Source: Deltaproteobacteria bacterium (GTDB lineage Bacteria > Myxococcota_A > UBA9160 > SZUA-336). From it: DNA of 64,000 nucleotides. Where the stretch lies: NCBI GenBank assembly GCA_031396695.1, contig JANNLG010000056.1:3853-67852 (forward strand), in the 5' to 3' direction. The notes beneath the pieces are model-generated. The model had not been told where the DNA came from, did not search any database, and saw only the letters and a program-made list of their open reading frames with translations. The first letter of the stretch is position 1. Each line of letters opens with the position of its first letter. The position numbers were made by a program, and so were the translations under genes. This document shows positions 9,393 to 45,609 of this stretch, in pieces.

Positions 9393-10865
9393 TTGAGCAG
9401 GTTCCGCACGGCGCGTGTATTGCGCGTTCTGGGTTGCCTCTGTTTGATCGCGTTCAGCACGAGCGCCTGCATGGAAGAGTCGTACGAGGAGCAGTACGCG
9501 GAGGGCGAGATCGACCTTCCCGACGACTTGTACGCGGTGAGCGCGATCGGTGCCGACCACCTGTGGGCGGCGGGCTACTTCGGCGCGATCTACCGCACGA
9601 GCGACGCCGGGAAGAACTGGCGAAAGCTCAACGGTCTCACCGATCAGTCGATCTACGACATCTCGTTCGCGGACGAGAAGAACGGTTGGGCGGTCGGTCG
9701 CCGCGGCTTCGTGATCCACACGACCGACGGCGGCGACACCTGGGAGCTGCAGAGCATCCCGCGCAAGCCGGCGCAGCACTTGTTCGCGGTCAAAGCGATC
9801 AACCCGACCACGGCCTGGGCCGTCGGTGACTGGGGCGGGCGCTACTACACGAGCGACGCGGGCAAGACCTGGCAGGATCGTTCGTTCCTGCTCACCCAGG
9901 ACCACCCGAGCTTCAAGTACCTCTCCGACGACGAGCTCGAGGCCTTCGAGCGCGGCGACAAGCTGTACGACGACATCTTCCTGAACGACGTCTACTTCGC
10001 CGACGACAAGCACGGCTGGATGGCCGGCGAGTACGGGCACACGTACTGGACCGACGACGGCGGCGAGACCTGGAATCACGGCCACATCGCGGGCACGGTG
10101 CGGTTCGAGGAGATCGTCTTTCCGATCGGCGAGAAGAAGGTGCCCAAGGACAAGTGGGAGCAGATCTTCGCCGCGACCGAGATCCTGCTCGACAAGCCCT
10201 ACCTGAAGATCGAGATGGAAGGCCTGATGACGCCGGCGGAGCTCGCCAAGCGTGGCGACACGTTCCTCGCGGACGAGCGCGCGGACGAGATCCAGAAGTT
10301 CCTCGAGAACGAGGGCATCAATCAGGACCGGATCAAGATCCGAAACGCGACGCCGCTCGACCAGGAAGGCGTCGACATGAAGGCGTTCGCGCAGAAGAAG
10401 CTCTCGCCCGTGCCCGCATTGAAGATCGAGGTCATCGAGACTCCGTTCCTGTTCGACGTGAAGTTCAAGGACCCGATGAACGGACTGATCACCGGTCTGG
10501 GCGGGGTGGTGCTCACGTCGAGCGACGGCGGCCGCACGTGGACCTACCTGCCCAGCGATTCGAAGCAAGCGTTGTTCGCGGGCGCCTTCGCGGAGGCGCG
10601 CATGATCACCGTCGGTGAGAAGGGCCAGCGCCGGATCAGCAAGGACGGCGGGCAGACCTGGCTCAAGCTCGGCGAAGAGGACGGCTTCGGCCGCTTCCCC
10701 GCGGACAAGCACGGCTACTTCCGCGATGTCACCTGCGGCACGCCGAGCGTGTGCTGGATGGTCGGCGCCGGTGGCAACGTGATCCGCTCGACCGATGCCG
10801 GCGAGAACTGGTTCGAGATGTTGCCCAAGCCGGAGCCCATCCCGGCCACCGGCGCGGGGGAGTGA
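9393..10865 (+). CDS. Secreted/lipoprotein with Ycf48-like (photosystem II assembly factor-like) BNR/Asp-box beta-propeller repeats
   Basis: Signal peptide VLRVLGCLCLIAFSTSAC followed by repeated S/TDxGxTW Asp-box blades (TSDAGKNW, TTDGGDTW, TSDAGKTW, TDDGGETW, SSDGGRTW, SKDGGQTW). Confidence 0.75.
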   Translation: MSRFRTARVLRVLGCLCLIAFSTSACMEESYEEQYAEGEIDLPDDLYAVSAIGADHLWAAGYFGAIYRTSDAGKNWRKLNGLTDQSIYDISFADEKNGWAVGRRGFVIHTTDGGDTWELQSIPRKPAQHLFAVKAINPTTAWAVGDWGGRYYTSDAGKTWQDRSFLLTQDHPSFKYLSDDELEAFERGDKLYDDIFLNDVYFADDKHGWMAGEYGHTYWTDDGGETWNHGHIAGTVRFEEIVFPIGEKKVPKDKWEQIFAATEILLDKPYLKIEMEGLMTPAELAKRGDTFLADERADEIQKFLENEGINQDRIKIRNATPLDQEGVDMKAFAQKKLSPVPALKIEVIETPFLFDVKFKDPMNGLITGLGGVVLTSSDGGRTWTYLPSDSKQALFAGAFAEARMITVGEKGQRRISKDGGQTWLKLGEEDGFGRFPADKHGYFRDVTCGTPSVCWMVGAGGNVIRSTDAGENWFEMLPKPEPIPATGAGE

Positions 10866-10867
10866 GC

Positions 10868-13800
10868 GTGGCCGACCAAGATCCAGAGAGACCGAAGGTC
10901 CTGATCGAAGAGAACCTGCCGGAGAGCGCGTTCTCGATGCGCTTCGGCCGCCTGGTCATCCGCTACCGGTTCGCCGCGTTGATGACGCTGCTCAGCATCT
11001 CGCTGTTCTTCTCGTTCCCGCTGGTCAACGCCGCCTACTACAACATCACCGCGGCCCAAAGCGAGGACGGCGTCGGCAAGGTCCTGTTGGGCGTAAAGGC
11101 GCGCTTCCGCGTCGACGCCAACATCCGCAAGACCTATCCCGAGCACCCGTACATCCACGCGCAGGACAAGTTCTCCGGGAAGTTCGGATCGGCCTCTTTC
11201 GTCGCGATCGCCGTGATCAAGAAAGAGGGCCAGATCTACGACTACGACTTCCTGCAGAAAGTCTCGCGCGTCACGGACAAGCTCGATCAGGCTCCGAACG
11301 TCAACCACTACCAGGTTCGCAGCCTCTCGCACATCAACACGCGCGTCATCATCATCGAGCCCGACGGCGCGATCGAAGCGGCACCGTTGCTCGAGGAGAT
11401 TCCCGAGGACGAAGCGGAGCTGCAGCAGCTCAAGGAGACCGTGCTCGAGAACCCCGGCCTGATCTACGGCCAGCTCGTGTCACGCGATCACCGCGCGGCG
11501 CTGGTGTCGGCGGGCTTCATCACGCACCGGCTCGACAACAGCAAGGCCTACACGGAGCTGTTCAACTATCTCCAGAACCTGAAGGCTGAAGAAGAGGCCG
11601 ACGGCACCGCCGAGATCTACATCTCGGGCGCGCCTATGGCGACCGGCTACGTGATCGAGAGCCAGTTCGATCTCGTGTACTTCCTGCTGCTCACGATCGT
11701 GCTGCTGTTCTTCCTGTTGCTCGCGTACTTCCGGCGCTTGCACGGCGTGGCGATCCCGATGGTCGCGGGTCTGTCGACGGCGGTCTGGGGCATGGGCATG
11801 ACCGGTTGGATCGGGATCGCGCTCGATCCGCTGATCCTGGTGATTCCGCTCCTGATCACGGCGCGCGCCATCTCGCACACGATTCAGATGGCCGAGCGCT
11901 TCTTCGAGGAGTACGAGGTCGAGTGCACCGTGCGATCCGAGAAGCTCGGTCGCAAGCTCACACCGGCGGAGATCGAGGAGTCGAAGCTCGAGTGCGCGAC
12001 CACGTCGCTCGCCAAGCTCATGCTGCCCGGCATGATCGGCATCCTGACCGACGCCGCGGGTCTCGCGGTGGTCGCGATCACGACGATCCGCACCATGCAG
12101 GAGCTATCGATCTTCGGGTCGTTCTGGGTGGTGGCGATCATCTTCAACGTGATCATCCTGCACCCGATCATGATCGCGTACCTGCCGCCGCCTCACGAGT
12201 TCGCGCACTTCTCGCCGATCTGGATGCAGAAGTTCCTGAAGTGGGCGGGCGAGACGGCGACCGGGACGGTGAGCCGTTGGGTGCTGGTCGGCGGCAACGC
12301 GATCGTGCTGATCCTCGCCACCTGGTACGTGCTGTTCAACTCGACCATCGGCGAGAGCCGGCCGGGCGTGCCGATCTTCTGGCCCGATCATCCGTTCAAC
12401 GTCGCGACCGCGCAGCTCGGCGAGACGTTCGGCGGCGTGGACCAGATGACGGTGTTCGTCGACGGCGACGGCAAGAGCGCGAGCTCCGACGGTCTGGTGA
12501 TCCAGCGCATGGAGGCGCTGCAGCGCTGGATGCGCAAGTACGTCGACCCGGGCGCGACCGTGTCGCTCGTCGACGTGATCAAGCAGTACTGGCTGGTGAA
12601 CCATTACGCGGATCCGAAGTGGGGCTTCGTGCCCGACGCCGCGCAGACGATCGGCGGCATCATCTTCCAGCTCCAGCGCAGCAACATCCCGGGCTTCCTG
12701 CGCCCGTTCCTCACCGACGACGCCGAGGACGCGAACATCACGTTCTTCTTCCGCGACCACAAAGGGAAGACGATCAAGCGCGCGGTCCACTACGCGAACG
12801 AGTTCATCAACGCCAACCCGATGGGCCGCATCAACGTGCGGCTGGTCGAGGACAAGGGCGGCGTGATGGGCGCGATCTACTACCTGTTCGGACCCGTCAT
12901 GTTCCCGCGCCACTCGGGCATGGTGGTCGAGGTCGCGGACATCAACGAGGACCAGAAGATCACGGGCTACCAGCCCGGCACCGCGGTGCAGGTCGGGCGC
13001 TGGACCGAGCGCGCCGACCCCGCGGAGGTCGAGAAGAACGTGATCGCCGGCATCCGCGCGCTGTCGCGCACGAAGCTGCCCGAGATCAAGCTCTCCGATC
13101 GCTTCAAGGAAGACCTCCAGCAAGACAAGAACCGGATGGAGAAGCTCGCCATCAATCTGTCGGCGGAGTTCGACTACCGGATCGAGAACATCTCGATTCC
13201 GGCGGACGAGATCGTCCACGAGTTCGAGACCGTCGCGGATCTGGTCAACCACATCGTCGACCGCTCGGCGTACTTCGTCACCGAAGAGTGGAAGAACGAC
13301 GAGGGCAACATCACCGCGCAGACGATCCGCTACTGCCGGCACTACTGCGGCTACGAGCTGTGGACGCAGAACACCAAGTTCAAGGACGTCTCGTTCAATC
13401 CGCAGCGCACCAACACCTACACGCGCGGCGCGGAGTTCGTGCTCGCGGGCGGGATCATGGGCGTCTACGCGGCGGTGAACGACGAAGTCGAGCGCGGCCA
13501 CGTCGCGAACATCGTGCTGATCTTCATCATCTCGTACCTGTTCGTGGCGATCAGCTACCGCTCCAACCTGGCCGGCCTGTTCGTGCTGTTCAGCATTGCG
13601 GTCGCGACCATGCTCTCGCTCGCCTACATGGCGGTGCGCGAGACGGGGCTCACGATCCAGACGCTGCCGGTGCAGTCGGTCGGCGTGGGCGTCGGAATGG
13701 ACTACGCGGTCTACGTCGCGGACCGGATCCGTCAGGAGTACGCCTGGTGCGGCGACTTCGACGAAGCGATCCGGCGCGCCATCCGCACCACCGGCATGGC

Positions 13801-14056
13801 CGTCTGCTTCACGGCCACGACGCTGATCGCGGGCATCATCGCCTGGTCCTTCAGCGAGCTGCGCTTCCAGGCCGAGATGGCGCAGCTGCTTTCGATCCTG
13901 ATGGGAGTGAATCTGCTGGGCGGGATCCTACTTGTGCCCGCTTGTTTCTCCATCGTGAAGCCCAAGAGCTTCGTCTCCGCGTCACTTGTCGAGGCCACGG
14001 AGCAACAAGAGATGAGCGGGTCGCAGCCGAAGGCCGTCGCCGCGAGCGCCGGATGA
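10868..14056 (+). CDS. RND-superfamily (MMPL/HAE-like) membrane transporter, about 1060 aa
   Basis: Two-fold repeat of hydrophobic 6-TM bundles separated by large periplasmic loops. GTG start 3 nt after the lipoprotein stop. This architecture is typical of RND exporters found beside Ycf48-like proteins. Confidence 0.8.
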   Translation: MADQDPERPKVLIEENLPESAFSMRFGRLVIRYRFAALMTLLSISLFFSFPLVNAAYYNITAAQSEDGVGKVLLGVKARFRVDANIRKTYPEHPYIHAQDKFSGKFGSASFVAIAVIKKEGQIYDYDFLQKVSRVTDKLDQAPNVNHYQVRSLSHINTRVIIIEPDGAIEAAPLLEEIPEDEAELQQLKETVLENPGLIYGQLVSRDHRAALVSAGFITHRLDNSKAYTELFNYLQNLKAEEEADGTAEIYISGAPMATGYVIESQFDLVYFLLLTIVLLFFLLLAYFRRLHGVAIPMVAGLSTAVWGMGMTGWIGIALDPLILVIPLLITARAISHTIQMAERFFEEYEVECTVRSEKLGRKLTPAEIEESKLECATTSLAKLMLPGMIGILTDAAGLAVVAITTIRTMQELSIFGSFWVVAIIFNVIILHPIMIAYLPPPHEFAHFSPIWMQKFLKWAGETATGTVSRWVLVGGNAIVLILATWYVLFNSTIGESRPGVPIFWPDHPFNVATAQLGETFGGVDQMTVFVDGDGKSASSDGLVIQRMEALQRWMRKYVDPGATVSLVDVIKQYWLVNHYADPKWGFVPDAAQTIGGIIFQLQRSNIPGFLRPFLTDDAEDANITFFFRDHKGKTIKRAVHYANEFINANPMGRINVRLVEDKGGVMGAIYYLFGPVMFPRHSGMVVEVADINEDQKITGYQPGTAVQVGRWTERADPAEVEKNVIAGIRALSRTKLPEIKLSDRFKEDLQQDKNRMEKLAINLSAEFDYRIENISIPADEIVHEFETVADLVNHIVDRSAYFVTEEWKNDEGNITAQTIRYCRHYCGYELWTQNTKFKDVSFNPQRTNTYTRGAEFVLAGGIMGVYAAVNDEVERGHVANIVLIFIISYLFVAISYRSNLAGLFVLFSIAVATMLSLAYMAVRETGLTIQTLPVQSVGVGVGMDYAVYVADRIRQEYAWCGDFDEAIRRAIRTTGMAVCFTATTLIAGIIAWSFSELRFQAEMAQLLSILMGVNLLGGILLVPACFSIVKPKSFVSASLVEATEQQEMSGSQPKAVAASAG

Positions 14057-14120: not shown

Positions 14121-17100
14121 ATGAGGGGAAGGCTGACTCAGGGACTTCTTGCCGCGCTGGTCCTCGGCGTTCTGCTGCTCGGCGGCGGGCTCGCACGAAC
14201 GGCTTCGGCCTTCGAGTGGGATCTACCGGGCGAGCGCAAGTTCTCGATCCACGGTTTCTACGAAACGCGGCTGATGTTCGTCGGCTCGGAGTTGCCGATC
14301 AACGGCGCGACCTGGTCGAGCTTCCGGCACGTTCTGTCGACGGAGCTCGAGCTCACGCTCTTCCCCGACGGCTTCGGCCCGTTCGACTCGATGTTCATGT
14401 TCTCGCGCTTCCTGGTCAGCTATGACTGCATCTACACCTACTCCTGCGGCACCTTCAACAGCGCGGATTCGTACGGTGACGACAAGCGCCGAGCGGTACG
14501 TCAGCCGCTCTCGCTGCGCGAGGACGCCAAGAACAACGCGCCGTATTTCGCGGGCCTGCTGAAGTCGACTTACCGCCCCGGCTCGATCGTGTCGCCGCAA
14601 GAGGTCCTGAACCCGAGTCGGCGCTATCGCGACTGCGACAACCCGCCGGGCGTGTTCGCGAACCCGTTTCCGCTGGCGGTGTTCTGCAACCTGAACAGCC
14701 GCTCGCCGCTCGACAACCCGAACAATCAGACCGGCAACAAGACCTGGGAGGTGCGCGCGGGCACGTTCCACCCCTTCACGCGTCCGAGCTTGACCGCCGC
14801 GGCGCGCTCGGCGATCGGCAACGAGGAATACGACCGACTGCAGGGCCTGCTGATCAGCGGCCAGGTTCTGTCGCGTTCTGAGACCGCGTTCCGCCTCACG
14901 CTGCTCGCGGAGGCCGGTGAGGCGCAGGCGCGCGGCGACGAGGACCTCGCCGAAGCGCTGAATGCGCAGGCCGACGCGGTCCTCGGCACGCCCGAGACCA
15001 CCTTCGACGCGAACATCCCGGCGCTCCTGGCCACGCGCCCGGATCCGAACCGCTTCGCGGAGTACGCGAACTCCATGACGCCGGCGCTGCTCAAAGCCAA
15101 GTGGGGCTCCGGCCAGCTGCGCAACCTGGTGTTTCCGTTCCTGGCCACGATCAACACGCCGATCGCGCCGGGTGGCTACTTCAACAACGGCGCGCCGCTC
15201 GACAGTATCGGTCAGTACGACCAGGCGCTGGGCGAAACGCTGAGCGCGAACCTCGGCGGCCTGCCGATCGTGAGCGACGCGGACGGTCAGCCGGTGTTCA
15301 GCGCATCGAACGCGCAGAATCGCGTGAACCCGTTCTTCGTCGGTCCAGACGGCCTACGCGACTCGGCGGACGACTTGCCGTTCGTCACCAACAACCCGGC
15401 TGCTCAGGAGGCCGGCTACCAGCTCGCCACACCGCTCCAGGGAGCGGCCGGCACGCCCGAGAACCTGCTCGCGAGCTTCGACGGCACGTTCGGCCGCAAC
15501 GCGCCGGGAAACGCGGCGCGACCGATCTACGCGCAGGCCGCGCGGATCGTCGTTCCCTCGGCGAGCGATCCAAGCGCGACCAAGATCGTCGAACTCTACG
15601 GCGTGTACAGCAACGAGTATCTCGTGAATCGCGGCTGTGGCGCCGTCTCGGGTAGCTACAACACCGCGACCGGGCAGTGCGTCCGCGCAGGCGGGGACGT
15701 CTCGGCGGAGGCCCAGGCGCGCGGCTGCAGCGTGATCGTGCGCGGCACGCGCGGACAGCAGGTCAACGTCGGCGTCAACGCGGACGGCCAGTGCATCGAG
15801 ATGAACACGACTTCACCGGCGCCCAACTCGCAGCTCCAGTTCGAGGTGCTCGGGCTGCTCGGCGATCTGAACGCGCGGCCGTTCGAAGCCAGCATCGAGC
15901 CGCTCAACACCACCGACTTCCGCGCCGTCGCCGAAGGCGGCGTGAACAACACCATGCCCGCTCGTCCGCGCATGGCGCAGCAGGGTATCGTCTATCAGTC
16001 GCCGGGCGCCCGCCGCGAGTACGAGCAGTACCACGACCTGGTCTCGAACCTGGATCTCAAGTACAGCGTCGACTCGCTGCAGTGGAACCACGGCGCCAGC
16101 CAGCGCGAGCACGAGTTCGCCGAAGGCTACGTCGAGTTCGAAATGGCCGACAGCCAGCTCTACGCGCGCGTCGGCAAGCTGATCGTGGTCTGGGGCAAGA
16201 CGGAGCTGTTCCGCAACCAGGACCGCAACAACCCGCTCGACATCGGCAACGGCATCTTCGCGCCGCTCGAGGAGCAGCGCGTCGGCCAGTGGGCGGTCGA
16301 CCTGACGATTTCGCCCGAGGCGTTCATGCGCGTGGGGCCCGTCGAGGATCTGCGCCTCGAGCTGCTCACGATCGTGAATCCGTTCGAGCCCACGGATCTG
16401 GGCAAGTGCGGCGAGGGAACCGCGATCGAGCTGATCTGTCTGAAGAGCTTCGGCGCGATGGCCAACGGCCTGGCCGGCATCGGCGTGATCGGCGAGCACC
16501 GACCCTACGACGACTATGCGGGTATCGAGCGCTGGGATTTCGGCGCACGCATCGAGGGTCGCTTCGACCGCTTCACCTTCGCGATCTCCGACTTCTGGGG
16601 CTGGGACGACGGCTTCTACCTCGATCTCGTGCAGCAGTACGAGCGCACCTCCGACATCACGACCGGCGCACCGCTCTCCGTCGGCAGCCGCGGCAACTCG
16701 ACCGGTTGCACGATTCGCACGAACTCCGAGGGCGAAGCCGTCGGGCCGAACAACATCGCGGGCGACGGCGACGACGACTTCCCGAGCGCGGGCAACTGTC
16801 TGCTCTGGGATCCGCCGGAGACCCCGGACGCGGCGCAGCTGCTGCGGCCGACCGACTCCGTGGCGGCGCTGCAGAACGTCAACCAGACGCTGTTCCACTC
16901 GCTGTGCGCCTACACCTTCGATCCGGATGAAGGTTTTTGCGCGTTCGATCGCCTGAACTACCCGCTCGAGTTCGGTCTGATCTCGAACATCATCTCCGGC
17001 CTCGGCGTGCTCGGGGCCGCCGTGACCGATGGCGTGGAGTCGATTCAGCAGAAGCGCCTGGATGGCCGCACGAGCGTCGTCCAGCGTGGCTCGCCCACCA

Positions 17101-19625
17101 TCCTGACACGCGGATTCCTGGCGATCGAACCGCTTGCGCGGCAGGACCAAGCCTACCAGGACCTCGGCTTGAGCCTTCAAAACGCCTCGGCTGCATTGCT
17201 GGGTTGCGGTGTGGCCTACGCCTCGCCCTGCAGCGGCGCGCAGCAGACGCAATGGGCCCGCGACCCGGCGATCGCCGCAGATCTGACGCGCGACCCGACG
17301 CTCGGTCCAGCCACGGTCGGCGGCATCGACTTGATGAATGCGGACGCGAGCGTCGTCACCCAGGAGTTCGTCGGCCTGAAGGCGCTCTCACCAGGCGCGC
17401 TGGTTGGAACGCGGCTCAACAACGCTGGCGCACTCTACTACCAGCCGGGGGTCAACTTCAGCCGCGACGGCCAGCAGGACATGAACATCGACGAGGACTT
17501 CAGTCGACAGGGTCGCGAGCTCAACCCGCCGATTGCAGTTTCGGCGCTCGAGAGCTCGGGCGAGTACCTGAACTTGACCCCCGACGACGTCATCGACCTG
17601 GGTGTGCAGGGCCGCGCGGAGTACCAGATCCAAGCCGGCAACATCCTCGAAGCGGATAGCTGGGTCGAGCCGATGCCGTGGACGGTCAACGAGGAGCTGC
17701 TCGAAAAGTACGGCGCGATCGTGTTCAACGCCGATCCGAGCAACGTGCTCGATCTCGATAGCCCGCTGAACAAATGGAACTTGATCGATCCGAACCAGGA
17801 CCCGAACGACCTCGCGAACATCCAGTACTCGGACATCGACGGCGAGTACTGCGCGCGCTGGATGAACTCGACGGACACGGACATCTCCACGCCGTTCAAC
17901 CTCGGGTGCACCGCGCTCGAGACGGTCTCGGCGAACTTCGAGCGGCTGCTGATCAGCATCGAGGAAATCGGCTTCGACCGTGTGTTCGACGCGCCTGAGA
18001 GCCTTCAGGAACTCGGCTACTGGTCGGAGTCGAACACCGCGCGCCAGGCCGCCGGCGATCCGGTCTCGGGTTCCGACGGAATCTACGCGCGCAATCAGTT
18101 CGTGATCTCGAGCGAGCAGATGGATTTCGACGTGGTCGCCGCCGCGCCCACGGGCGATTCGACTTTCATTTTCGTGGACATCGCCGCGAGCGAGACTCCG
18201 CAGCAAGCCGCCGCGCGAACGCTGCTCGAGTTTGATCCCCAGGAAGGGTGTCTGAGCGCGTTCTGCTACCTGCAGGTCAACAACGTCCTGGTCGATCCCG
18301 ACGACGCCGCTCCGGAGGGCCGCGACTTGATCCTCGCGATGCCGGTCGGCTTCACGGTCGACATCATGTCGCCGATCGTGGATCCGAACGACCCGAATGG
18401 CCCAGTCAACCCCAACGATCCGAATCAGCAGTTCGAGAACACCGGCTTCGACCGCAAGGTGAACCCGGCCGCGCTCCAGTACCTGCAGCAGACGGCGGGC
18501 GACACTTCGCTGCGGCGCCTGCTCGCGTCGCAGGTGATCGCGGTCGAGACGCCGACCGGCATCGAGTACGTGCAGATGAGCAACGAGCAGCGCGATCAGC
18601 TGCTCGGAGAGCTCGGCGACGCGCTCAACCGCGGTCGCGACATGGACGGCGACGGCAGCTCGGATCTCGACCGCAACCGCGACTCGGTCTGGGACGGGAT
18701 CGACGACTACAGCGGCGGTGGACCGATCACCGACGACAACATCCTGTGCGGCACCGGCATCCCCGGCGATCCACTCCAGGACGGCGTTCAGTACAGCCCG
18801 TTCCGCAGGGACCAGGACATGAACTCCGAGGCCTTCCGGGCGATGTTCCCGAACGGTCTGCCCCCGCGTTCGCCGGTGTTCTGCCGCGGCGTGTCGGGCA
18901 TCCTCAGCGCCACCAACCAGACGCTGCCGATTCGCAAGGCGGGCGGCGACGGCCGCTACGGCCGCCGCGACTTCCTGTGGCAGAACGGACGCCAGGTCGC
19001 GTTCAACTACCAGAAGCGGAACGTCATGGGCTTCGGTCTCGACTTCGCGGAAGACGTCACGAAGACGAGCTGGGGTCTGGAGTTCTCGTGGATGGCGAAC
19101 AAGCTGCTGCCGAACAACTTCGAGTACGACGGCTATTCGCAGACCGACGAGATGGTGCTGTCGATCTCCGTCGACCGGCCAACCTTCTTCAACTTCCTGA
19201 ACCCGAACCGCAGCTTCTTCATGAACCTGCAGATGTTCCTGCGCTACCTGCCCGACTACGAGGGCGGCCGTGGCGGCAACGACGGCATGTACGGCGCTGC
19301 GGGCGCATCGCTCACCGGCAACATCGCGTTCACTTTCTTCACCGGCTACTTCCAGGATCGCCTCGCGCCGCGCGTCACGATCCTGTACGCGCCGTGGGAG
19401 TCGCAGGGCGCGTTGCTCACGGGCCTGTCGTACCGCTGGAACGACGCGTTCTCGACCAGCATCGGCTGGACGCAGTTCTTCGGTCACATCTACAAGCAGC
19501 AGGGCGGATACTTCCCGATCGCCCAGTACGGCTCGGTCGCCGACTACAACGGACCGGTCCTGCGCGGCGTCGCGCCGGTCCTGTACCGAGACCAGGCCGA
19601 AGTCCGGATTCGCTACACCTGGTAA
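14121..19625 (+). CDS. Giant (1834 aa) secreted outer-membrane protein; DUF1302-like beta-barrel N- and C-terminal segments flanking an insert of over 1000 aa rich in Asp, Asn and Gly
   Basis: Signal peptide LLAALVLGVLLLGGGLARTASA. N-terminal FSIHGFYETRLMFVG resembles DUF1302 starts. The C-terminal roughly 300 aa show alternating-hydrophobic beta strands and end in ..VRIRYTW (aromatic terminal residue typical of outer-membrane barrels). The internal sequence carries DPNDPNGPVNPNDPN and DMDGDGSSDLDRNRDSVWDGIDD (thrombospondin-3-like calcium-binding motif). GAGAGGGG precedes the ATG. Confidence 0.75.
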   Translation: MRGRLTQGLLAALVLGVLLLGGGLARTASAFEWDLPGERKFSIHGFYETRLMFVGSELPINGATWSSFRHVLSTELELTLFPDGFGPFDSMFMFSRFLVSYDCIYTYSCGTFNSADSYGDDKRRAVRQPLSLREDAKNNAPYFAGLLKSTYRPGSIVSPQEVLNPSRRYRDCDNPPGVFANPFPLAVFCNLNSRSPLDNPNNQTGNKTWEVRAGTFHPFTRPSLTAAARSAIGNEEYDRLQGLLISGQVLSRSETAFRLTLLAEAGEAQARGDEDLAEALNAQADAVLGTPETTFDANIPALLATRPDPNRFAEYANSMTPALLKAKWGSGQLRNLVFPFLATINTPIAPGGYFNNGAPLDSIGQYDQALGETLSANLGGLPIVSDADGQPVFSASNAQNRVNPFFVGPDGLRDSADDLPFVTNNPAAQEAGYQLATPLQGAAGTPENLLASFDGTFGRNAPGNAARPIYAQAARIVVPSASDPSATKIVELYGVYSNEYLVNRGCGAVSGSYNTATGQCVRAGGDVSAEAQARGCSVIVRGTRGQQVNVGVNADGQCIEMNTTSPAPNSQLQFEVLGLLGDLNARPFEASIEPLNTTDFRAVAEGGVNNTMPARPRMAQQGIVYQSPGARREYEQYHDLVSNLDLKYSVDSLQWNHGASQREHEFAEGYVEFEMADSQLYARVGKLIVVWGKTELFRNQDRNNPLDIGNGIFAPLEEQRVGQWAVDLTISPEAFMRVGPVEDLRLELLTIVNPFEPTDLGKCGEGTAIELICLKSFGAMANGLAGIGVIGEHRPYDDYAGIERWDFGARIEGRFDRFTFAISDFWGWDDGFYLDLVQQYERTSDITTGAPLSVGSRGNSTGCTIRTNSEGEAVGPNNIAGDGDDDFPSAGNCLLWDPPETPDAAQLLRPTDSVAALQNVNQTLFHSLCAYTFDPDEGFCAFDRLNYPLEFGLISNIISGLGVLGAAVTDGVESIQQKRLDGRTSVVQRGSPTILTRGFLAIEPLARQDQAYQDLGLSLQNASAALLGCGVAYASPCSGAQQTQWARDPAIAADLTRDPTLGPATVGGIDLMNADASVVTQEFVGLKALSPGALVGTRLNNAGALYYQPGVNFSRDGQQDMNIDEDFSRQGRELNPPIAVSALESSGEYLNLTPDDVIDLGVQGRAEYQIQAGNILEADSWVEPMPWTVNEELLEKYGAIVFNADPSNVLDLDSPLNKWNLIDPNQDPNDLANIQYSDIDGEYCARWMNSTDTDISTPFNLGCTALETVSANFERLLISIEEIGFDRVFDAPESLQELGYWSESNTARQAAGDPVSGSDGIYARNQFVISSEQMDFDVVAAAPTGDSTFIFVDIAASETPQQAAARTLLEFDPQEGCLSAFCYLQVNNVLVDPDDAAPEGRDLILAMPVGFTVDIMSPIVDPNDPNGPVNPNDPNQQFENTGFDRKVNPAALQYLQQTAGDTSLRRLLASQVIAVETPTGIEYVQMSNEQRDQLLGELGDALNRGRDMDGDGSSDLDRNRDSVWDGIDDYSGGGPITDDNILCGTGIPGDPLQDGVQYSPFRRDQDMNSEAFRAMFPNGLPPRSPVFCRGVSGILSATNQTLPIRKAGGDGRYGRRDFLWQNGRQVAFNYQKRNVMGFGLDFAEDVTKTSWGLEFSWMANKLLPNNFEYDGYSQTDEMVLSISVDRPTFFNFLNPNRSFFMNLQMFLRYLPDYEGGRGGNDGMYGAAGASLTGNIAFTFFTGYFQDRLAPRVTILYAPWESQGALLTGLSYRWNDAFSTSIGWTQFFGHIYKQQGGYFPIAQYGSVADYNGPVLRGVAPVLYRDQAEVRIRYTW

Positions 19626-36036: not shown

Positions 36037-37076
36037 GCGCCGCACAGAATGGCCACGGCCACGAGCACGAACCGCGCAAGCTCTCCAAGCGCGACTTCGA
36101 GACCGACCAGGCCGTGCGCTGGTGCCCGGGCTGCGGCGACTACGCGATCCTGGCGCAGATGCAGAAGGTGATGCCCGAGCTCGGCATCCCCAAAGAGAAG
36201 ATCGTCTTCATCTCCGGGATCGGCTGCAGCTCGCGCTTCCCGTACTACATGGATACGTACGGCTTCCACACCATCCACGGCCGCGCACCCGCGATCGCGA
36301 CCGGCTTGAAGCTGACGCGGCCGGAGCTCTCGATCTGGGTCGTCACCGGCGATGGCGACGCGCTCTCGATCGGCGGCAACCACTTGATCCACACGCTGCG
36401 CCGCAACATCGACCTGAAGATCCTGCTGTTCAACAACAAGGTGTACGGCCTCACCAAAGGCCAGTACTCGCCGACCTCCGACATTGGCATGCGCACCAAG
36501 TCCTCGCCGGCCGGCGCGGTCGCGCGGCCGTTCCGCACGCTCTCGCTGGCGCTCGGCGCCGAGGCCACCTTCGTGGCGCGCGCGGTCGACACGGAGGTGC
36601 AGCACCTGCAGGAAATGATCTCGCGCATGGCCGCGCACAAGGGCAGCGCCTTGCTCGAGATCTACCAGAACTGCCCCGTCTTCAACGACGGCGTGTTCGA
36701 CGAGCTGAAGGACCGCAAGACCAAGTCCGAGCACCTGCTCGAGCTCGAGCACGGCAAGCCGCTCGTGTTCGGCAAGAACTCCGAGTCGTGCGTGAAGCTC
36801 GACACCAAGCGCATGCGGCTGTACGTCGGCAAGGTTGGCGACGCGGACGGAGGCGTCGAAGTCGTGCACGACGAGGCGAATCCGGATCCGGGTCTGGCGA
36901 TGCTGCTCGCGCGCTGCACGCCGCCCGAGTTCCCGACACCGATCGGTGTGCTGCGCTCGGTCTCGGAGCCGACCTTCGAAGACCAGTCGCGGGCTCAGCA
37001 GACCGCGGAGCTCGCCGCGCGCGGCGAGGGCTCGCTCAAGGAACTGCTCTACTCCGGCGACCGCTGGGACGTCTAG
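36033..37076 (+). CDS. korB: 2-oxoacid:ferredoxin oxidoreductase beta subunit (KorB-type, TPP-binding)
   Basis: WCPGCGDYAIL.., GIGCSSRFP.., TGDGDALSIGGNHLIH (TPP motif). ATG overlaps the korA stop (ATGA). Confidence 0.85.
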   Translation: MSAAQNGHGHEHEPRKLSKRDFETDQAVRWCPGCGDYAILAQMQKVMPELGIPKEKIVFISGIGCSSRFPYYMDTYGFHTIHGRAPAIATGLKLTRPELSIWVVTGDGDALSIGGNHLIHTLRRNIDLKILLFNNKVYGLTKGQYSPTSDIGMRTKSSPAGAVARPFRTLSLALGAEATFVARAVDTEVQHLQEMISRMAAHKGSALLEIYQNCPVFNDGVFDELKDRKTKSEHLLELEHGKPLVFGKNSESCVKLDTKRMRLYVGKVGDADGGVEVVHDEANPDPGLAMLLARCTPPEFPTPIGVLRSVSEPTFEDQSRAQQTAELAARGEGSLKELLYSGDRWDV

Positions 37077-37096
37077 GAAACAGGAGACGGAATCCG

Positions 37097-37204
37097 ATGC
37101 AACCGAACGCCTTCCACCTGATGTACATGTTCGCCGCCACCTGCGGCGTGCTCTTCATCCCCGTGATCGTCGGCCTGGCCGCGGTCCTGCTCGAACGCGA
37201 ATAG
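37097..37204 (+). CDS. Micro-ORF encoding a 35-aa hydrophobic single-TM peptide (MQPNAFHLMYMFAATCGVLFIPVIVGLAAVLLERE)
   Basis: AGGAG sits 9 nt upstream of the ATG. 28 of 33 sense codons end in G or C, matching the genomic third-position bias. It lies 20 nt after the korB stop, in the same frame as the 36122..37204 track ORF. Confidence 0.4.
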   Translation: MQPNAFHLMYMFAATCGVLFIPVIVGLAAVLLERE

Positions 37205-37212
37205 GTCCGCCG

Positions 37213-37431
37213 CTAGCGGAGCTTCGCGAGCACCTCCTCGTGGGTCGGGAAGCGTCCGCTCGCCTTCTTCGAGAAGATTTGCAGGCCGTCGGCCAGCACC
37301 TCGAAGACGCCGCTATCGCCTTTGATCAGGACTGGGCGGATGCCGATCCGCGCTTCGATCTCGGCCGCCAGACTGGTGGCCCTGGGCAGGTAGTTTCAAC
37401 GGACGCAGTACTCGATCGAGATCTTCTCCAT
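37213..37431 (-). CDS. SelW/Rdx-family selenoprotein (72 aa) with an in-frame TGA (Sec) at codon 12 in a CxxU motif
   Basis: Hand translation: MEKISIEYCVR-U-NYLPRATSLAAEIEARIGIRPVLIKGDSGVFEVLADGLQIFSKKASGRFPTHEEVLAKLR*. The TGA at 37396-37398 (complement) sits exactly at the Rdx CxxU redox position. The downstream sequence keeps the family pattern (GGVFEV..DG..I.SK..GRFP). The track ORF 37396..37587 stops at this TGA. Confidence 0.8.
37363..37382 (-). promoter_or_regulatory. SECIS-like hairpin 13 nt downstream of the UGA of the SelW-like gene
   Basis: GGGCCACCAGUCUGGCGGCC: GGCC/GGCC and CC/GG stems with a G/U-containing apical loop. Spacing is as expected for a bacterial SECIS. Confidence 0.45.
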
Positions 37432-37748
37432 GCAGCGGAGGCTCGCTTGCCCGAGGCCCGGAGACAAGACCCGAGGCGGTCGGGGCCGGCAACTCGGGGC
37501 GACCGGCAGCGGGCACGCAAATGCCCGAGGAACGTCACGCGTCTGGTGCGGATTCCTCGCCGAGTCCGCGCCACACTGCGTCACCAAAGCCGCAATCCGG
37601 TCACATTCGATGAGAGCGCGGCGCCGGTGCGGGGGATTGTGGGTATCGGCCTACGCGAAGTAGACTCCCGGTTCTGGCGTGTGAAACCGCGCAAGCGCCA
37701 CCGGGCCACGCCGCGCGGCCAAAGACCTCCCTCCCCGAAGAGCACAGA

Positions 37749-40367
37749 ATGAGCGTCTCCTCCAAGTCGAACGTCCGAGCTCTCCTGTCGCTGCTTCTGG
37801 CGGCGGCGGTTTCGAGCGCGTCCGTTCACGCGGCAGAGACCTCGATCGACGTCACCAAGACCGCCGCTTCGCTGCCCGCGGCTCACCTGCTCGAGGCTGC
37901 GCGCGCAAAGAACGTGCTCGGTGTCGGCAAGGCGCTCGCGGACGGCGCGCCGCTCGAGTCGCGAGGTTCCGACGGCGCGACGGCGCTGCTGCTCGCCTCG
38001 CGCGCGGGCTCGGCCGAGATCGTCGAGCTGCTGATCGAAGCCGGCGCGAACGTCAAGGTGAGCGACGTCTCCGGCTTCACGGCGCTGATGCGCGCGGGCG
38101 AGCGCGGCCACCTCGACATCGCGCAGCGCCTGCTCGAAGCCGGCGTCTCGGCTAACGCGCAGAACGTCTCCGGCGCCTCCGCGCTTCAGCTCGCCGCATC
38201 CGAAGGCAAGCTGCCGATCGTGCGGCTCCTGCTCGAGCACCAGGCCGATCCGAATCTGCGCGACCAGAGCGGCGAGACGCCGCTGATGGTCGCGGCGCGC
38301 AACGGCAAGACCCGCATCGTGGATGCGCTGGTCAAGGCGGGTGCGCGCGTGAACGAGCGCTCCAGCGACGGACGATCCGCGCTGATGTTCGCCGCCGGCA
38401 CTGGCCGCACCTACACCGTCGGCGCGCTGCTGGCCGCGGGCGCGGATCCGGCCGCGATCGATGACGCCGGCGCCAGCGCGCGCGAGCACGCGCAGCGAGC
38501 CAAACGCGGCGACATCGCGAACCTGCTGCAGGCGCTCGAGGCGCTGCCGGAGGACTCGGCGATCGGCACGTCGTTCGTGATTGCGGAGGGCGCGGACATC
38601 GAGATCGGCCGACCCACCACCTCGACGCTGATCTCGGCGCTGCTGGCCAAGGGCGCCGACGTGAATGCGCGCTCGTCCGAGGGCAAGACTGCGCTCCTGC
38701 TCGCCGCCGAACGCGGTCGCACGGAGACCGTCTCGAAGCTGATCAAGAGCGGCGCCGACGTGGACGCGGCCGACGCCAGCGGTCAAACGGCCGTCGAGCG
38801 CGCCGCGCGCGAAGGCCATCGCGAGATCGTGTCGACGCTGCGCCGCGCGGGCGCGGACGTCTCGCAGACCGATCCGACCGTGCTGATCCCCGAGCTCAAG
38901 GCCGCGGGTGATCTGTTCGTGGACGCGGCGCGCACCGGCGATGTGAAGCTGCTGCGGCAGATGATCGAGAAAGGCATCGATCTCGACGGCATGACGCACG
39001 GCGGCCAGACCGCGCTCGGCGAGGCCGCGCGCCAGGGCGAGGTCGAATCCGCCACGATCCTGATCGAGGCCGGCGCGACCGTCGACGACACCACGAATGC
39101 GGGCCAGACGCCGCTGATCCGCGCGGTGAGCGAAGGCCGCACCGACATCGTGAAGCTGCTCGTGCTGTCGGGCGCGGATGTGAATCGCGCCACCCACTCC
39201 GGCACCACGCCGCTGATGGAAGCCTCGACGTCGGGTGTGGAAGCGGTCGTGCGCATCCTGCTCGAAGCCGGCGCCGACACGCGTGTGGGCGTCGAGACCG
39301 GCCAAAGCGCGCTCTCGCGCGCCGCGCGCGAGGGTCACAACTCGATCGTCGAGCTGCTGCTCGCGCGCGATCCCGGTCTCTCCGTGCGAGGCGCGCAAGG
39401 TGACATCGCGCTGACCCGCGCCGCGCAGACGGGCCAGGTGCAGACGGTCGTCACGCTGCTGCGCTCGGGCGCCGATCCGAACGCGCGCGATCGCAAGGGT
39501 CTGCCGGCGCTGGTGCTCGCCGCACGCGAGGCTCACACCGAGGTGATGGCCGAGCTGCTGCGCGCGGGCGCGGACCCGAACGGCCGCACGCGCAACGGCC
39601 AGACGCCGCTGATGTTCGCGGCCATGAACGGCCGCGCTCCGGCCGTGACCGCGTTGCTCAAGGGCGGCGCGCACGCCAACGATCGCAGTTTCACCGGCCA
39701 GACGCCGCTGATGTACGCCGCCTGGAAGGGCCGCACGCGCGCGATCTTCGCGCTGCTCGGCGCTGGCGCCGAAGTGAACGCGCGCGCCGAGGACGGTCAG
39801 ACCGCGCTGATCCGTGCGGTCCGCGAGGGGCAGCTCGAGGCCGCGCGTGCGCTGTTGAAGCACGGTGCGGATCCGAACCAGGTCGATCGCCAGGGCTGGT
39901 CACCGCTGCTCTACGCCGCGGCGGCCGGTCACGGTCAGCTCGCGCTGTTCCTGCTCGAGAAAGGCGCCGATCCCAATGCCAAGGGCTCCGACGGCCGCAC
40001 TGCGCTCATGCTCGCGGCCCTCCTGCCCAGCGACGTCGAAGCCTCCGGTCGCCGCGACGACTCGAACAAGGCGCTCGTGAAGGCGGCGCGCGACGGCCAC
40101 ACCTCGTACCTGCGCTCGCTGCTCGCGAAGGGCGCGGGCCCAGACACGCGCGACGAGAACGGCTGGACGCCGCTGATCCACGCCTCGGCCGCGGGTCACG
40201 AAGAGATCGTGCAGTTCCTGCTGCAGAGCGGCGCCGCGCCGAACGCGCGCACCGCCACCGGCCTGACCGCGGCCACGCTGGCCTCGGCGCACGGCCACGC
40301 GCTGATCGTCCGCATGCTGTTCGACGCGGAGCACGGCGTTGGTCAGCAAGCGCGCACGCCGAACTGA
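37749..40367 (+). CDS. Secreted ankyrin-repeat protein (872 aa, about 24 ANK repeats)
   Basis: Signal peptide LLSLLLAAAVSSASVHA, then tandem 33-aa ANK units (..GxTALMxAAxxGHxxIVxxLLxAGADVNA..) across the entire length. Confidence 0.85.
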   Translation: MSVSSKSNVRALLSLLLAAAVSSASVHAAETSIDVTKTAASLPAAHLLEAARAKNVLGVGKALADGAPLESRGSDGATALLLASRAGSAEIVELLIEAGANVKVSDVSGFTALMRAGERGHLDIAQRLLEAGVSANAQNVSGASALQLAASEGKLPIVRLLLEHQADPNLRDQSGETPLMVAARNGKTRIVDALVKAGARVNERSSDGRSALMFAAGTGRTYTVGALLAAGADPAAIDDAGASAREHAQRAKRGDIANLLQALEALPEDSAIGTSFVIAEGADIEIGRPTTSTLISALLAKGADVNARSSEGKTALLLAAERGRTETVSKLIKSGADVDAADASGQTAVERAAREGHREIVSTLRRAGADVSQTDPTVLIPELKAAGDLFVDAARTGDVKLLRQMIEKGIDLDGMTHGGQTALGEAARQGEVESATILIEAGATVDDTTNAGQTPLIRAVSEGRTDIVKLLVLSGADVNRATHSGTTPLMEASTSGVEAVVRILLEAGADTRVGVETGQSALSRAAREGHNSIVELLLARDPGLSVRGAQGDIALTRAAQTGQVQTVVTLLRSGADPNARDRKGLPALVLAAREAHTEVMAELLRAGADPNGRTRNGQTPLMFAAMNGRAPAVTALLKGGAHANDRSFTGQTPLMYAAWKGRTRAIFALLGAGAEVNARAEDGQTALIRAVREGQLEAARALLKHGADPNQVDRQGWSPLLYAAAAGHGQLALFLLEKGADPNAKGSDGRTALMLAALLPSDVEASGRRDDSNKALVKAARDGHTSYLRSLLAKGAGPDTRDENGWTPLIHASAAGHEEIVQFLLQSGAAPNARTATGLTAATLASAHGHALIVRMLFDAEHGVGQQARTPN

Positions 40368-44553: not shown

Positions 44554-45609
44554 TCAGCGGTTGCGCTGCGCGGCGAGCGATTCGTAGCTGGGCTTGCCGT
44601 TCGCGTCCCACTCGCGGAACAGCTCGAAGAACTCCGGACCCATCGGGTTCTTGCCGCGAATCGGCATCGAGCCGCGCCGGATCGTCCAGTCGTTGGGCGA
44701 CAGCTCGCCCGCGCGCACGAAGTGGCGCTCGGCGGCTTCGACCTGACCCTGCTGGTGCAGGCGCCAGGCGAGCGAGAACTCCGCGCGTGCGAGCTCCTCG
44801 TCGGGCGTCGGCGGAACCGTGCGCTTCGCGATCTGTTCCGCAGGAACGTCGCTCTTCCCGCTCCGCACCCAGGCGCGCACGGCGGCGAGGAACGGCGCCG
44901 ACTCGCGGCCGTGGAACTGCTTGAACATGTCCGTGCCGTACTCCATCGCGCTTGGCCGCGCGATCCGGCCTGCCTCGTCGATGAACACCACCGTCGGCAC
45001 GTTGATCATCCCGTACAGGTGGGCGACGCGGTGTTCGGTGTCGATCAGGCTCGGATGCGTCGGCCGCGCCTTGTCGATGAACGGGCGCGCGTCGTCGGCC
45101 GACCTGTCCAGCGCGACCGTGACGGGCACGAAGCCGGAGTCGCCGAGCTCCTCGTACAGCGCCTGCCACACGGGCAGGTCCTCACGACAGCCTCACCAGG
45201 AGGCGTAGGCGACGAGCAGCACCTTCTTTCCGCGCAAGCCGCCGAGCGACCACTCCCGCCCCGTCAGATCGGGCAGGCGGAAGTCCGGCGCGATGCCCCC
45301 TTTCAGCACCTCGCCGCGCTCGCGGGCCGAGGCGCCCAGCGAGGCAATGCGCTCGTCGAGATCGAGCGCGAGCGGGCGCTGCAGGAGCTCGGCCAGCGCC
45401 TGGAGGTCGACCTTGCCGTCGGCGACCACACCCGCGCGGCCGGCGATCGGCACGCAAACGTCGCCGAGGCACAGGCCCTCGGGCTTCAGCACCCAGCCCA
45501 GCGACCGTTCGAGCGCGTTTGGGGAGAGCCGCACGCGACCGCCAGCGAGATCGGCCGCGACGGACGTCGCGCGGCCCTCGTCGAGAATCGTGAAGGGATG
45601 TTCGGCCAT
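44554..45609 (-). CDS. Thioredoxin-fold (TlpA/ResA/redoxin-like) selenoprotein, 351 codons, with an in-frame TGA (Sec) replacing the first active-site Cys (..LVAYASW-U-GCREDLP..)
   Basis: Track ORFs 45193..45750 and 44554..45171 are in the same frame, separated only by a TGA at 45193-45195 (complement). Their fused translation gives APDFRLPDLTGREWSLGGLRGKKVLLVAYASW-U-GCREDLPVWQALYEELGDSGFVPVTVALD..VPTVVFIDEAGRIA, collinear with TlpA (APDFTLPDLDGK..GKVVLVNFWASWCxPCRxE..). GAGGAGG lies 5 nt upstream of ATG 45609. Confidence 0.75.
45162..45178 (-). promoter_or_regulatory. SECIS-like hairpin 14 nt downstream of the UGA of the Trx-like selenoprotein
   Basis: CCUGCC-CGUGU-GGCAGG: a perfect 6-bp stem with a 5-nt loop containing G and U. 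Position matches a bacterial SECIS. Confidence 0.45.

Follow-up and report, generated by a model that had tools for sequence, protein, structure and literature searches.

A SelW-like gene of the Rdx family with a conserved in-frame UGA codon and a constrained downstream hairpin in a high-GC, Myxococcota-like genome

Mammalian SELENOW and the eukaryotic SelW, SelT, SelH, and Rdx12 proteins have a thioredoxin-like fold and carry a CxxU redox motif near their N-terminus (Dikiy et al. 2007). The protein described here shares this feature with SELENOW and the eukaryotic Rdx family, i.e., its own CxxU redox motif is also found near the N-terminus. The eukaryotic SECIS element is located in the 3' UTR and read through SBP2/eEFSec, in contrast to the hairpin analyzed here, which lies inside the open reading frame directly after the UGA codon as in SECIS elements of the bacterial SelB type. 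This difference in placement between eukaryotes and bacteria has been described previously, and bacterial SECIS elements are known as stem-loops that closely follow the UGA and have a G in their small apical loop (PMC1088965).

Among bacteria, SelW-like selenoproteins were described in a study of the Sargasso Sea (Zhang, Fomenko & Gladyshev 2005, PMC1088965) and are the most abundant selenoprotein family in the GOS data, where they show the CxxU motif and where 427 Sec forms compare to 56 Cys forms (Zhang & Gladyshev 2008, PMC2398784). The scarcity of Cys homologues in this family has also been noted elsewhere (PMC1794560), and a database from 2026 contains 57,630 selenoproteins of bacteria in 111 families (PMC13326102).

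Bacterial SelW-like proteins are ca. 70-80 residues long with an N-terminal CxxU motif, and their coding sequence includes a hairpin with a G in the apical loop after the UGA. The same is true for the gene that we have analyzed in a stretch of 64 kb of DNA, in the following called the window. Sec forms far outnumber Cys forms among bacterial SelW-like proteins, and all of the best matches of this gene (82/82) have a TGA at the site in question. As for differences, the window copy has GDSG ahead of VFEV, where SGGG is commoner, and its SECIS stem contains an A x C mismatch. Judged by its sequence, the gene nevertheless has every property by which members of the family are recognized, and nothing of substance sets it apart from them. 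We conclude that this is very probably a functional gene whose product is a SelW-like selenoprotein (Rdx family) of 72 residues, with the UGA at codon 12 decoded as selenocysteine (Sec). The call is correct but does not amount to a discovery because SelW-like/Rdx selenoproteins have been catalogued since 2005, and the gene in the window changes nothing in how Sec decoding and the Rdx family are understood.

A small redox-protein gene of the Rdx family

The coding sequence of the SelW-like gene is found on the minus strand at 37213..37431 and comprises 72 codons plus a TAG stop, with its extent supported by profile matches and by the ends of orthologues. The frame opens with the ATG at 37431-37429 and runs through MEKISIEYCVR to an in-frame TGA at codon 12 (37396..37398, minus strand), the codon that we predict to be read as Sec based on the TGA in relatives and on Cys in distant homologues. 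It then continues for 60 sense codons (NYLPRATSLAAEIEARIGIRPVLIKGDSGVFEVLADGLQIFSKKASGRFPTHEEVLAKLR, i.e., NYLPRATS...EEVLAKLR) to the TAG at 37215-37213. A first-pass annotation of this DNA had described the same frame with its start at 37431, its TGA at 37398-37396, and 60 further codons, and this was reproduced exactly by our translation. As also stated there, the ORF track lists a single call at this place, a 63-aa ORF (37396..37587, minus strand) that ends at the TGA. The GC content at third codon positions (GC3) is 0.91 before and 0.89 after the TGA, which is the level of real genes in this window of ca. 69% GC. No sigma-70-like promoter was seen upstream of selW in a sigma-70 scan, which is uninformative for this phylum.

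For profile searches, the 72-residue product was used with the TGA replaced by Cys. The Rdx family of Pfam (PF10262) was matched with an E-value of 3.8e-18 and 65.9 bits compared to a cut-off of 22.6, and the alignment runs nearly from end to end (residues 3-72, profile positions 1-73 of 74). The stretch of 60 residues after the TGA is sufficient by itself for a match to Rdx in Pfam (E=1.6e-10). Among the NCBIfam models, TIGR02174 ("CXXU_selWTH") was matched with 55.6 bits, above its cut-off of 34.2. The top-scoring NCBIfam model was NF041051 (SelTWH_Campy) with a full-length alignment and 82.7 bits; membership in this equivalog was rejected because the score lies below the curated cut-off of 88, which places the product outside NF041051 and in the broader TIGR02174 subfamily.

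The redox motif near the N-terminus reads C9-V-R-U12 and includes the TGC codon of Cys9 as the predicted resolving cysteine (37405..37407, minus strand). Several Cys-form bacterial Rdx proteins of known structure (PDB 2OKA, 2FA8 (Atu0228), 2OBK, 2OJL, and 2P0G) belong to the same family with E-values from 3.6e-8 to 1.2e-5, and their CxxC aligns residue for residue onto C9-V-R-U12. In 2OKA and 2FA8 this motif is CTQC, with Cys9 of the window protein at the first Cys and the TGA at the second. These structures differ from the window protein in that they have Cys at the Sec site, are ca. 30 residues longer (103-108 aa), and are encoded without UGA or SECIS. The family alignments thereby bear out two proposals of the first-pass annotation: membership in Rdx/SelW, for which PF10262 and TIGR02174 both score above their cut-offs and homologues in the PDB are matched, and the location of the TGA at the U of CxxU, where distant homologues and solved structures carry Cys. 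The locus is a genuine gene for a small redox protein, and the product is predicted to adopt a thioredoxin-like fold.

The TGA codon and its annotation among relatives

We scanned genomes at one per species and obtained 466 relatives, from which 80 loci were kept and combined with two loci that had been fetched earlier from metagenomes. The resulting comparison set of 82 loci covers Myxococcota, Acidobacteriota, Planctomycetota, KSB1, Zixibacteria, and other groups. Every one of these loci has a TGA at the homologous codon with a conserved open frame after it, and a cysteine equivalent to Cys9 is likewise present throughout (82/82). The window protein is 81% identical to its Myxococcota orthologue at MAG locus L003, and the orthologues in L003, L006, L007, and L012 have the same start and stop positions as the window gene. 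The close relatives L003, L004, and L005 share the TGA and show mostly conservative changes. Conservation of the frame beyond the TGA in orthologues had been named in the first-pass annotation as one of the points at which its proposal could fail, and what we found is a frame kept in 82 of 82 loci and the same stop in orthologues. More distant relatives (L083-L086) have TGT (Cys) in place of the TGA, and the motif C9-V-R-U12 aligns with a CxxC in the proteins P0006, P0008, P0010, and P0013.

A search at the protein level returned 17 relatives, some of which start just after the TGA, while some have a W at the Sec position and others a CxxC. Proteins that start after the TGA are P0002, P0004, P0015, and P0017; one of these, P0004 of NCBI from a Myxococcales MAG orthologue, is a 62-aa "Rdx family protein" that begins after the TGA with a CTG start codon. 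A W at the Sec TGA was called in P0001, P0003, P0005, P0007, P0011, P0014, and P0016. Whenever truncated or W-containing protein calls were checked against the DNA, the codon turned out to be TGA (DNA loci of mis-called genes are L001:10001-10189, L002:297-512, L087, and L088).

The W calls show that the amino acid cannot be told from the sequence alone, and these calls by several gene callers are also what speaks for a recoding of the UGA to something other than Sec, be it by near-cognate read-through with Trp or Cys or by SelB-independent local suppression. However, the "W" calls are TGA in the DNA, and the codon sits at the catalytic CxxC/CxxU site where homologues have Cys but never a Trp encoded by TGG. 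In addition, TGA is the commonest ordinary stop codon in the window, where it terminates 18 of 32 genes and is therefore not reassigned genome-wide. Finally, bacterial SECIS elements are known to be arranged in just this way, as a conserved hairpin that lies at such a distance from the UGA and has G and U in its small loop (PMC1088965). We thus regard recoding to another amino acid as extremely unlikely and read the codon as Sec.

These entries show that the SelW-like family is systematically mis-annotated in public protein collections. The main value of the locus is one of annotation: ordinary gene callers would miss or shorten the gene. The first-pass annotation had warned that standard pipelines overlook it, and the relatives that have been cut to a start after the TGA or given a W illustrate how this happens.

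A constrained hairpin downstream of the UGA

The hairpin that we assign as a bacterial SECIS element lies inside the coding sequence (37363..37381, minus strand), and the assignment is based on covariation and codon choice. Its helix begins 14 nt after the UGA and consists of a 5' arm (37381-37375), the loop AGUCU (37374-37370), and a 3' arm (37369-37363), with the sequence GGCC-A-CCA GUC UGG-C-GGCC and one A x C mismatch among the seven stem positions. Earlier, a hairpin with GU in the loop had been placed at 37382..37363, i.e., 13 nt after the UGA. The hairpin itself stands and is both conserved and covarying, but the offset does not, because the helix (37381-37363) starts at 14 nt and the figure of 13 nt counts one extra unpaired G at 37382.

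In the SECIS of E. coli fdhF, studied by the Bock laboratory, the minimal upper stem-loop is located ca. 11 nt after the UGA, and G and U of the loop contact SelB. The hairpin in the window resembles this element in that it lies within the coding sequence just 3' of the UGA and has a small apical loop with the conserved G-U. Sixteen relatives even have the loop GGUCU, which we take to be the loop sequence of fdhF. Differences are the spacer, which is 14 nt and not 11, and the stem, which has 7 bp with an internal mismatch instead of a bulged U. With its position 3' of the UGA and the G in its small apical loop, the stem-loop has both elements of the published definition of a bacterial SECIS (PMC1088965).

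Taken alone, this hairpin is weak evidence and only mildly unusual. The single-sequence fold of 71 nt has a z-score of +0.88 compared to shuffled sequences, which is no significant signal, and a hairpin that is just as stable and has GU in its loop occurs after 22 of the 1139 window TGA triplets (1.9%). These figures, along with the fact that DNA of 69% GC often has long open frames and stable hairpins, are what could be said for the view that there is no gene at all and that frame and hairpin arose by chance in GC-rich DNA. This view is already refuted by profile E-values from 1e-10 to 1e-18, by the 466 relatives, by conserved synteny, and by covariation, so that its probability is practically nil. 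Given that the hairpin is statistically unexceptional by itself, the excess over chance rests on the profile matches and on the comparison across genomes. An Rfam scan of the whole window at gathering thresholds and an E-value scan of the locus returned nothing relevant, and bacterial SECIS elements matched no Rfam family.

The comparison across genomes was based on an ungapped alignment (A3) of the 53 nt from the TGA onward in all 82 sequences. In this alignment, columns 18-24 pair with columns 30-36 around a 5-nt loop of the type [A/G]GU[C/U]U, in which G26 is invariant and U27 at least 90% conserved. Standard pairs are formed in 82.4% of the cells compared to 74.2% after shuffling (0/500 shuffles reach the observed value), and the covariation score is 0.222 compared to 0.087 (again 0/500), with controls that use slid partners reaching at most 0.092. 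Most telling is the pair 21-33, which is found as CG (57), GC (12), AU (4), UA (4), and UG (2) and is unpaired in two cases; its two columns fall on synonymous third positions in Ala codons, and all four Watson-Crick pairs occur. At the pair 22-32, amino-acid changes restore pairing, e.g., as A-U in L011, U-A in L080, and U-G in five sequences.

At this same pair of columns (window positions 37377/37367), 33 of 81 distinct hairpins including the one in the window have a non-standard pair that is mostly A x C. The other hairpins have G-C, U-G, A-U, or U-A there, sometimes together with a change from Ala to Val, Glu, or Gly.

Codon choice in the loop is similarly informative. All 62 loci with a Ser at this place encode it by AGU (62/62), 27 of them at a GC content of at least 62%, though AGU accounts for merely 2.9% of the Ser codons in the 32 window genes. 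The constancy of AGU in spite of its rarity points to a constraint at the level of the RNA, in agreement with the covariation. Among the Cys forms, two of three distinct sequences are devoid of the GU loop and the 21-33 pair, while the Cys-form L086 retains a perfect hairpin. Because of this latter case, part of the hairpin conservation could stem from the conserved peptide A-[TAS]-[SG]-L-A-A. The hairpin is structurally constrained at the RNA level, and the alignment of 82 sequences offers a clean, family-specific view of a SECIS element that is constrained at synonymous sites, which could help to improve selenoprotein finders.

Probable selenocysteine decoding and gene neighborhood

By analogy with established bacterial Sec decoding and with what is known about the Rdx family, translation would start at the ATG at 37431 and the UGA at codon 12 would not be read as a stop. 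Instead, the hairpin at 37381-37363 with G and U in its 5-nt loop would recruit SelB carrying Sec-tRNA(Sec) while the ribosome is at the UGA, Sec would be inserted, and translation would continue to the TAG at 37215-37213. The product would then be a small protein with a thioredoxin fold in which Cys9-x-x-Sec12 could cycle between the selenol/thiol and the selenenylsulfide form, and it would probably act as a thiol-dependent oxidoreductase.

A second gene of the Sec type was located in the window by scanning for in-frame TGAs flanked on either side by coding signal. It encodes a Prx-like AhpC/TSA protein with a W-U-G-C-R motif (44554..45609, minus strand; TGA at 45195-45193) and lies 7.8 kb from the SelW-like gene. 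A match to the AhpC/TSA-Redoxin domain (PF00578, E=3.1e-16) spans the TGA, and the UGA is followed at 14 nt by a hairpin (CCUGCC at 45178-45173, loop CGUGU, GGCAGG at 45167-45162). The TGA is retained in the syntenic L003 (L003:2245-2247), and L011 has TGC (Cys) at this site (L011:2866-2868). ORF callers had split the gene into ORFs of 185 aa and 205 aa. "Prx-like (UGC-containing)" proteins are a published selenoprotein family (PMC2398784). With such a gene only 7.8 kb away, the lineage very probably decodes UGA as Sec, and the SelW-like and Prx-like UGC genes together mark this high-GC, Myxococcota-like genome as a probable selenocysteine user.

A rival explanation is that the locus is a relic or pseudogene, i.e., that the Sec machinery was lost recently, that translation now ends at the UGA after 11 codons, and that the frame downstream has not yet decayed. 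SelW-like genes and the Sec trait are indeed frequently lost in sister lineages (PMC1794560), and genes of the Sec machinery were not found in the 64-kb window: SelA, SelB, and SelD are absent from the ca. 50 window ORFs that were scanned with Pfam, and a tRNA scan of the window detected no tRNA of any kind including tRNA-Sec. There was no tRNA-Sec in the flanks of the loci L003-L062 either, and a regular expression for the SelD motif [C/U]G[CS]K gave only spurious matches in six-frame translations of the window and all loci. However, frame, stop position, hairpin, and the rare AGU codon are all intact in the window, GC3 after the TGA is still 0.89, and L003, L004, and L005 retain the TGA with mostly conservative changes. 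The other gene with an in-frame TGA is likewise intact, both in the window and in the syntenic L003, and it is unlikely that the Sec trait is dead when two independent genes of the Sec type have stayed intact within 8 kb. Altogether, we consider it very unlikely that the locus is a relic and favor a working selenoprotein gene.

The window is chromosomal, as seen from housekeeping genes for Hsp70, AspRS, OTCase, and a GidA-family protein, and it is closest to MAGs of Myxococcota. As the first-pass annotation had it, the SelW-like gene is flanked by korB, which ends at 37076 (plus strand), and by a gene for an 872-aa ankyrin protein (37749-40367, plus strand). The korB gene encodes the TPP-binding beta subunit of a 2-oxoacid:ferredoxin oxidoreductase, and its frame runs from ca. 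36039 to 37076 (plus strand). The ORF at 36122-37204 (plus strand) was rejected as korB; it has no Pfam match and is, except for its tail, an off-frame artefact of GC-rich DNA. This tail after korB is a 35-aa hydrophobic ORF with a single helix (37097..37204, plus strand; MQPNAFHLMYMFAATCGVLFIPVIVGLAAVLLERE). This ORF and the SelW-like gene converge and are neighbors by position, their stop codons being separated by 8 bases (37205-37212). The 35-aa ORF is conserved, with 80-89% identity in L003, L004, and L005 and a positional analogue in L006 and L007, and it is not assigned to any family.

Gene order is shared over a longer range by L003 and L004, i.e., AMP-ligase, thiolase, korA, korB, selW, ankyrin, periplasmic binding protein, SPFH, an unknown protein, and Prx-like, and the syntenic proteins of these loci are 67-95% identical. 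The block of thiolase, korA, korB, the 35-aa peptide, selW, and ankyrin is syntenic in L003-L007. It is conceivable, though in our estimation very unlikely, that selW of this Myxococcota clade belongs to a conserved module in which its product might serve as a dedicated redox repair or electron partner of the oxygen-sensitive 2-oxoacid:ferredoxin oxidoreductase. If true, this would be the first physiological role for bacterial SelW-like proteins. The synteny may equally reflect plain inheritance within one clade because other phyla have different neighbors at this place (e.g., ALAD in L001).

Two other genes in the window caught our attention. The ankyrin-repeat protein consists of repeats almost throughout its 872 aa (Ank_2, 542 bits), which is an unusual size for a bacterium, and its gene, which diverges from the SelW-like gene, has syntenic counterparts in L003, L004, and L005. 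Further away, an ORF of 1834 aa (14121-19625, plus strand) has only a faint match to DUF1302 and adjoins a gene for a 1101-aa transporter of the MMPL/RND type (10751-14056, plus strand).
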